From: Escherichia coli
GTDB lineage: Bacteria; Pseudomonadota; Gammaproteobacteria; Enterobacterales; Enterobacteriaceae
Reading direction: 5' to 3' (one strand)
Length of the DNA: 497 nucleotides
Assembly (NCBI RefSeq): GCF_003334335.1
Contig: NZ_QOWQ01000184.1
How positions within the stretch are numbered: position 1 is the first letter of the stretch; every line of letters begins with the position of its first letter. Positions 1 through 497 of the stretch are shown in pieces. A model generated the notes under the pieces. The model worked only from the letters and a program-made list of their open reading frames with translations, did not search any database and was not told the DNA's origin. The translations under genes and the position numbers were made by a program.

Positions 1-41
1 TCGGTATAACCGAGTAACTGGCGGGTCGTAAACAATCCCAT
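1..41 (-). CDS. E: Major capsid protein, lambda gpE family (5' end only; gene continues beyond window start)
   Basis: Minus-strand ATG at 41-39 followed by an open frame to the window edge, encoding MGLFTTRQLLGYT. This resembles the lambda gpE N-terminus MSMYTTAQLLAAN (M, TT, QLL shared). An AAGGA Shine-Dalgarno sits 8 nt upstream. The start lies 57 nt downstream of the D-like stop, close to the lambda D-E spacing as I remember it. Only 13 codons are visible, so the call rests on synteny plus a short N-terminal match. Confidence 0.75.
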   Translation of the reverse strand, partial: MGLFTTRQLLGYT

Positions 42-49
42 AAATCAGT

Positions 50-54
50 TCCTT
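50..54 (-). promoter_or_regulatory. Shine-Dalgarno (AAGGA) for the E-like major capsid gene
   Basis: Minus-strand sequence AAAGGA-ACTGATTT-ATG, an 8-nt spacer to the start at 41. Confidence 0.6.
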
Positions 55-69
55 TCATTCAGAAATCAG

Positions 70-91
70 TCAGGCCAACGCGGTGGCCTGA
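70..91 (-). other. Intergenic GC-rich stem-loop between the D-like and E-like genes (possible mRNA stability or attenuator hairpin)
   Basis: Perfect inverted repeat: on the + strand tcaggcca (70-77) and tggcctga (84-91) flank a 6-nt loop acgcgg (78-83). On the mRNA (minus) strand this is UCAGGCCA-CCGCGU-UGGCCUGA, an 8-bp stem with six G/C pairs, starting 8 nt after the D stop codon. It is followed by CUGAUUUCUGA, not a clean U-tract. Confidence 0.55.
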
Positions 92-98
92 TAACGTG

Positions 99-446
99 TT
101 ACGGCAGCGCCGCGTGACTCAGGGCTGTGCCGACAAAGGCGTTGGCCTTTTTGTGTTCATCCACACTTTCAGGCCAGCGGATTGCCTCCGTCGCAAAGGT
201 CCCCGACTTGTAATACGTCAGCACCGTCTCTGTGCCTTCAAGCGGCAGTACCAGTATGCCAGCCGCACTACCGGCTTTCTGTCCGTCCCAGACCACCAGT
301 TTCCCGCTGGCTTCATCCAGCATCAGGGGCGTCAGTGCCGGTGTTGCCTGAGAAATCCCGCTGCTGCCTGTGGCGGTATGAGCCGGATCATTACCGGCAA
401 AAATACGTACTTCTGCACGTTGTTCAGTGATGGTTTTCGTTACCAT
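99..446 (-). CDS. D: Head decoration protein, lambda gpD family (complete, 115 aa)
   Basis: Minus-strand ORF from the six-frame track: ATG at 446-444, TAA stop at 101-99. The product aligns by eye with lambda gpD as I recall it, including NDPAHTAT, TPLMLD, KLVxWDG, GIL, YKSGTF, WPE and AFxGTA motifs; roughly half of aligned positions are identical. Length (115 aa against 110 in lambda) and position immediately upstream of a gpE-like start fit the lambda gene order. GAGG Shine-Dalgarno lies 10 nt upstream of the ATG. Confidence 0.9.
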   Translation of the reverse strand: MVTKTITEQRAEVRIFAGNDPAHTATGSSGISQATPALTPLMLDEASGKLVVWDGQKAGSAAGILVLPLEGTETVLTYYKSGTFATEAIRWPESVDEHKKANAFVGTALSHAALP

Positions 447-497
447 ATTGTAAAAACCTCATATTGATGGTCAGCACTGACTTCATGGCATGGCCAT
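440..497 (-). CDS. Probable 3' end of the upstream head gene (position of lambda C/Nu3 protease/scaffold); partial, frame uncertain
   Basis: On the minus strand two frames are open from the window edge into the D start region. One ends with TAA at 442-440, overlapping the D ATG as ATGGTAA; the other ends at a TGA about 20 nt inside D. The third frame is closed by TGA stops at 485-483, 476-474 and 461-459. Lambda gene order predicts a scaffold/protease gene ending just before D. About 19 codons are visible and the correct frame cannot be chosen from the sequence alone; the coordinates given are for the frame ending at 440. Confidence 0.25.
   Translation of the reverse strand, partial: WPCHEVSADHQYEVFTIW
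457..460 (-). promoter_or_regulatory. Shine-Dalgarno (GAGG) for the D-like gene
   Basis: Minus-strand sequence GAGG-TTTTTACAAT-ATG, a 10-nt spacer to the start at 446. The site sits inside or at the very end of the upstream ORF. Confidence 0.55.

Follow-up and report, generated by a model that had tools for sequence, protein, structure and literature searches.

A phage 21-type shp and major capsid gene module from Escherichia coli and the hairpin that separates its two head genes

Introduction

To which phage, and to which part of its genome, does a short stretch of Escherichia coli DNA belong when its gene order resembles that of the lambda head? The question is raised by 497 nt of contig NZ_QOWQ01000184.1 (assembly GCF_003334335.1), here termed the window, meaning the whole stretch that was analysed. 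A preliminary description, made from the letters of the sequence, had recognised the end of an upstream gene, a D-like gene, a 57-nt spacer and an E-like start on one strand, and had placed them in the head module of a lambdoid prophage or phage. All four elements lie where that description located them. The window almost certainly represents the middle of a head-assembly module, encoded on the minus strand, from an E. coli lambdoid phage or prophage of phage 21 type, and no evidence contradicting this gene-level reading was obtained. The module is already known, very common and well characterised, its genes having previously been sequenced, structurally solved and studied genetically in lambda shp chimeras. 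The window holds no accessory or cargo gene, and its significance beyond correct annotation is small; the practical value of the analysis lies in an exact label, namely shp of phage 21 type with the major capsid gene, within a late operon.

Organisation of the window

The features of the window, in the direction of transcription, are as follows.

497..483, minus strand: 3' end of the protease/scaffold gene (last four codons, MAMP, and TGA), from the annotation of identical DNA
482..447, minus strand: spacer upstream of shp, 36 nt, with ribosome-binding site GAGG at 460..457
446..99, minus strand: shp-type head decoration (capsid-stabilising) gene, a lambda D homologue of 115 codons with its TAA stop at 101..99
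98..42, minus strand: spacer between shp and the capsid gene, exactly 57 nt, with the capsid-gene ribosome-binding site AGGA at 53..50
91..70, minus strand: near-palindromic spacer hairpin, TCAGGCCA-ccgcgt-TGGCCTGA
41..1, minus strand: start of the major capsid gene (equivalent of phage 21 gene 7 and lambda E), 13 codons plus 2 nt

The reading frame that ends in MAMP and TGA lies outside the range covered by the preliminary description (positions 1 to 446) and was fixed from annotated identical DNA. In Escherichia phage PhiR5_1 (PV340545), which is 100% identical over the window, the protease/scaffold coding sequence stops 15 nt into the match, and phage 21 genes 5/6 stop likewise. The nested genes of this region correspond to phage 21 gp5/gp6 and to lambda C/Nu3 (S49 peptidase). 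Similarity of the protease/scaffold protein to the NCBIfam SppA domain (E = 3e-32) scored 111.9 bits, whereas the curated cut-off is 155.45. The shp gene starts at the ATG at 446; its ribosome-binding site is annotated at the equivalent place in the phage 21 record M81255, and the GAGG motif is kept in all haplotypes, unlike an overlapping hexamer of promoter type. The capsid-gene ribosome-binding site is also annotated in M81255, and the ATG at 41..39 opens MGLFTTRQLLGYT, with the reading frame continuing past the window edge.

The decoration and capsid proteins

The 115-residue product of the central gene matched the Pfam family HDPD (PF02924; residues 5-110 aligned with positions 1-114 of the 116-position model, E = 1.4e-23) and the 'head decoration' family PHROG 49 (E = 1.1e-29). 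Comparison with proteins of known structure gave E = 1.8e-67 over all 115 residues for SHP (PDB codes 1TD3 and 1TD0) and about 1e-29 for the lambda gpD entries (PDB codes 1C5E and 7VII). SHP of phage 21 (crystal structures 1TD0, 1TD3 and 1TD4), also 115 residues long, is 93% identical and differs from the window protein by eight amino-acid substitutions; identity to lambda gpD is 58%. The gene is flanked by the protease/scaffold gene on one side and by a capsid gene of the Phage_cap_E family on the other, as it is in seven divergent relatives. No NCBIfam model matched the D-like or E-like proteins, whereas Pfam and PHROG models did. The reading frame was intact in all 52 distinct homologous sequences (81 copies from fetched loci), and its variable sites were distributed 9/14/31 over codon positions 1, 2 and 3, a third-position bias. 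Such agreement greatly exceeds what coincidence would give; as judged by homology, the protein is a member of the gpD/SHP head decoration family (Pfam HDPD).

In the expanded capsid shell the threefold sites are occupied by trimers of SHP, whose binding stabilises the head once it is filled with DNA (Forrer et al. 2004; Wendt & Feiss 2004; reviewed in PMC7602432); gpD is known to act in the same manner (PMC7602432). The shell itself is formed by the capsid protein, and the trimers are added after the expansion that accompanies DNA packaging (PMC7602432). Considering the 93% identity to SHP, the window protein would likewise be predicted to bind as a trimer at the threefold sites of the capsid and to stabilise the filled head.

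The capsid gene, of which the window holds only the start, was followed in the DNA of PhiR5_1 and of E. coli 2015C-3121, both 100% identical to the window. The preliminary description had anticipated about 1 kb of a gpE-like capsid gene past position 1, and the gene there measures 1029 nt and encodes 342 residues. The protein covers the whole of Pfam family Phage_cap_E (PF03864; all 329 model positions, 1-329, E = 4.8e-66), and its identity to lambda gpE is 61% along the whole length.

Relationship to phage 21, lambda and N15

Along its full 497 nt the window is 96.6% identical in DNA to the phage 21 head operon (M81255; genes 5/6-shp-7), and equally so to the complete phage 21 genome. Gene order, spacer lengths, positions of the ribosome-binding sites and the spacer hairpin are those of the window. 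Position 78 is T in the window and G in phage 21, such that a perfect 22-nt palindrome of phage 21 is present in the window in a version with one mismatch. In the GenBank taxonomy phage 21 is classified in genus Jouyvirus and not in Lambdavirus.

The lambda C/Nu3-D-E region (NC_001416, 4418-7160) shares gene order, gene roles and Pfam families with the window, has a D-E spacer of 55 nt as opposed to 57 nt and, like the window, carries a GC hairpin in that spacer. This homologous arrangement is what would be expected if the window came from lambda or a very close Lambdavirus relative with genuine D and E genes. In contrast, the lambda proteins are only 58% (D) and 61% (E) identical, against 93% for phage 21 SHP, the DNA is too diverged for megablast, and the spacer hairpin differs in sequence from that of lambda. 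No wild-type lambda record appeared among the megablast matches of the window, in spite of one match named 'Lambda_4C10', which carries a 21-type segment (96.0% identity); the module is therefore of phage 21 type. The megablast and protein comparisons refute lambda proper, the window having no near-identity to Lambdavirus lambda, and an origin in lambda or a very close relative can be given next to no credence. The preliminary description stands with one refinement: on sequence comparison the module is that of phage 21 (shp/gene 7), a homologue of lambda D/E only at the protein level. The two decoration proteins also differ in solution, where SHP is a trimer and gpD a monomer; lambda capsids accept SHP in place of gpD (PMC7602432).

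Phage N15 (NC_001901) presents the same arrangement of decoration gene, stem-loop and capsid gene (gene 7 - stem-loop - gene 8), with 50% protein identity and a longer spacer (67 nt). Its stem sequence is unlike that of the window and is followed by a clean T7 run, and the stem-loop is annotated 'putative rho-indep. transcription terminator'.

Late-operon context and occurrence

In the identical DNA of PhiR5_1 and E. coli 2015C-3121 the head and tail genes form a collinear order on one strand, which is the order of lambda. Past position 1 lie FI-FII-Z-U-V-G-T-H-M-L-K-I-J, and past position 497 the S49 protease/scaffold, portal, W and the large and small terminase subunits (Nu1-A-W-B-C/Nu3), so that the head-tail joining and tail genes foreseen on one side and the portal and protease/scaffold genes foreseen on the other are all found. 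Flanks devoid of phage structural genes, or an early end of the reading frame at position 41, which had been named as grounds for abandoning the proposal, were seen in neither of the two. Head genes of such phages are transcribed within a single late operon under the Q antiterminator (PMC7602432).

The copy in 2015C-3121 lies inside a complete-looking prophage of ~48 kb between yecD and yecE, in agreement with the proposed location in a prophage late operon. Tyrosine integrase and excisionase genes (int/xis) occupy one end and abut yecE; tail-fibre and accessory genes adjoin yecD/aspS at the opposite end. The interior holds repressor-like genes, the Q antiterminator and lysis genes. A candidate att core, a weak one, is a 23-nt repeat of 83% identity present at both junctions, of which 11 nt are exact (CACGCAGTTAA); in the fetched loci the two repeats are placed as follows.

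about 9010-9060, one fetched locus of 2015C-3121: junction with the candidate att repeat, weak
39279-39301, a second fetched locus of 2015C-3121: candidate att repeat, weak

The integrase coding sequence overlaps the start of yecE. Taken together, every testable prediction of the preliminary description was borne out in DNA 100% identical to the window, which supports its interpretation.

Among complete E. coli genomes the window was matched in 1866 of 5426 (about a third), in one to five copies each, almost all of them chromosomal, and the module thus ranks among the most frequent prophage head modules of the species. At least 24 E. coli chromosome records are 100% identical over all 497 nt, and these records and PhiR5_1 all carry the annotation S49 peptidase, head decoration, major capsid. 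Several sister phages of PhiR5_1 are 98% identical to the window, and a scan of IMG/VR revealed only close relatives (at least 96% identical).

Two further origins were weighed against this distribution. Many lambdoid prophages of E. coli are defective, especially in STEC, and together with the high frequency and copy number given above this would fit a window derived from a defective or cryptic remnant, in which head genes persist and particles are no longer made. In contrast with such a remnant, PhiR5_1, a phage isolate grown on E. coli C, carries an identical copy; in the 2015C-3121 prophage the late and lysis genes, and those for regulation and integration, form a complete complement; and shp is intact in each of the variants compared. 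A remnant is thus considered unlikely, although it retains appreciable weight. The second origin is an engineered construct, SHP being used in biotechnology as a trimerisation scaffold: PDB entry 8w3p holds an SHP fusion, and several papers use SHP in adenovirus shields. Against a construct, the native flanks are present (the gp5/6 end, the two natural spacers and the beginning of gene 7), and natural chromosomes are identical to the window throughout its length. The probability of an engineered origin is very small.

The hairpin between shp and the capsid gene

The spacer hairpin (91..70) comprises 8 bp, five of them G-C pairs, closing a 6-nt loop, and thereby has the GC-rich stem-loop of an intrinsic terminator. 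It is followed by the tail CTGATTTCTG, a broken T-tract that passes only a loose rule (5 T in 8 bases), and no uninterrupted U-tract directly follows the stem in the window. This contrasts with lambda, where the hairpin GCCGC-ctgt-GCGGC is followed by T7 in the canonical intrinsic-terminator shape. The folding energy is unexceptional against dinucleotide shuffles (z = -1.1, and -1.7 for the spacer alone), and an Rfam scan of both strands (E <= 1) returned only a meaningless 10-bit lncRNA match.

Variation along the spacer is uneven. Counted over 81 related 21-type loci as columns, which are not independent events, 2 of 49 columns were variable in the spacer outside the hairpin centre, compared with 31 of 116 third-codon positions of shp (Fisher p = 5e-4), while the hairpin centre (84..77) varied at 6 of 8 columns, more than the third-codon positions of shp (p = 0.009). 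Nearly all spacer variation therefore falls in the central 8 nt of the palindrome. The 22-mer is a perfect palindrome in 46 of the 81 loci, with CCGCGG or CCATGG at its centre, and the window is one mismatch away. The central variation could reflect quasi-palindrome template-switch mutation or structural selection. Within the 21-type loci, conservation of the stem arms does not exceed that of the remaining spacer. Apparent compensation at the closing pair (84 A>G with 77 T>C) was considered and rejected, as the two changes occur in different sequences, and covariation therefore gives no proof of the hairpin structure. A role of the palindrome as a repeated protein-binding site was also rejected because 40 kb of prophage contain it just once.

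Since IMG/VR yielded only close relatives, divergent spacers were taken from GenBank phage records. A stem with a T7 run behind it stands at the decoration-capsid junction of lambda, PhiR47_2, ev243, phi80, N15 and EcoM-783R5, and one with a T4 run in Vibrio ST2-1pr, such that T7 follows the stem in six of the seven head-module types compared with that of the window. These stems comprise 8-13 pairs with a G+C-rich core and differ in sequence. Aeromonas PhAER-5 is an exception, with no spacer between the decoration and capsid genes. Among the divergent modules compared, a terminator is annotated at the junction hairpin only in the N15 record. The counterparts in the two reference phages are located as follows.

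6096-6121, lambda: hairpin at the decoration-capsid junction
1057-1081, N15 fetched locus: hairpin at the decoration-capsid junction

In the fetched PhiR5_1 locus the other strong, terminator-like hairpins on the sense strand of the late operon are placed at 13493-13513, directly after the capsid gene, and at 21924-21947, between I and J; owing to the first of these, stem-loops bracket the capsid gene.

The positional counterparts in divergent modules, together with the uneven variation in the 21-type family, suggest that the hairpin is not accidental. By analogy, it would represent the 21 lineage's version of the terminator-shaped intercistronic stem-loop of related head modules. Q-modified polymerase would be expected to read through the spacer hairpin, which would likely block unmodified transcription and/or shield the transcript upstream of it against decay from the 3' end. 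The phage 21 lineage appears to have lost the T-tract and gained a 22-nt palindrome with a hypervariable centre, which could point to a different mode of action or to template-switch mutation. That the hairpin has a conserved regulatory function in lambda-like head modules, beyond an incidental terminator shape, is improbable and is put forward with little confidence. If it is regulatory, it could act as a checkpoint that admits only Q-modified polymerase to the capsid gene or, alternatively, as a signal for processing or stability through which the upstream genes, D and E are adjusted in relative dosage. In either case, it constitutes a small detail of gene expression in the late operon. No paper describing a terminator at the D-E junction or a function of its hairpin was found, and a literature search on PhiR5_1 likewise returned nothing.

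Other signals in the window and in database records

An open reading frame on the plus strand (96..467, 123 aa) could be taken for a real gene or for a second gene overlapping shp, since 51 of the 52 variants leave it uninterrupted. In contrast, this frame is unannotated in every record examined, begins with GTG, and its variable sites are distributed 32/15/11 over its codon positions, the first of which coincides with the third of shp. Its openness is explained by shp using none of the codons TTA, CTA and TCA. The absence of these codons and the first-position variation identify the antisense frame as a shadow of shp, and its being a gene is highly improbable.

A sigma-70-like site on the minus strand just upstream of shp (CTGACC-16-TACAAT, 474..447) is probably a chance occurrence; it was rejected because the -10 hexamer reads AACAAA in 27 related loci and a late operon needs no internal promoter. 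Five terminator-like matches occur in the window as against 0.4 expected, three of which overlap at one site. Matches consisting of a stem and T-run lie inside shp at 127-150 on the plus strand and 420-405 on the minus strand, the former being a product of the codons that specify HKKANAFVG.

The start of a capsid gene of the E. coli 21 type was also encountered in the record of Aeromonas phage AP1 (MT713136, about 249.4-251.1 kb), a T4-like jumbo phage. There it is joined to unrelated upstream sequence, and nearby pieces match E. coli dicB and IS5/IS903B; this part of the record, near its end, is suspected to be a chimeric assembly or contamination.
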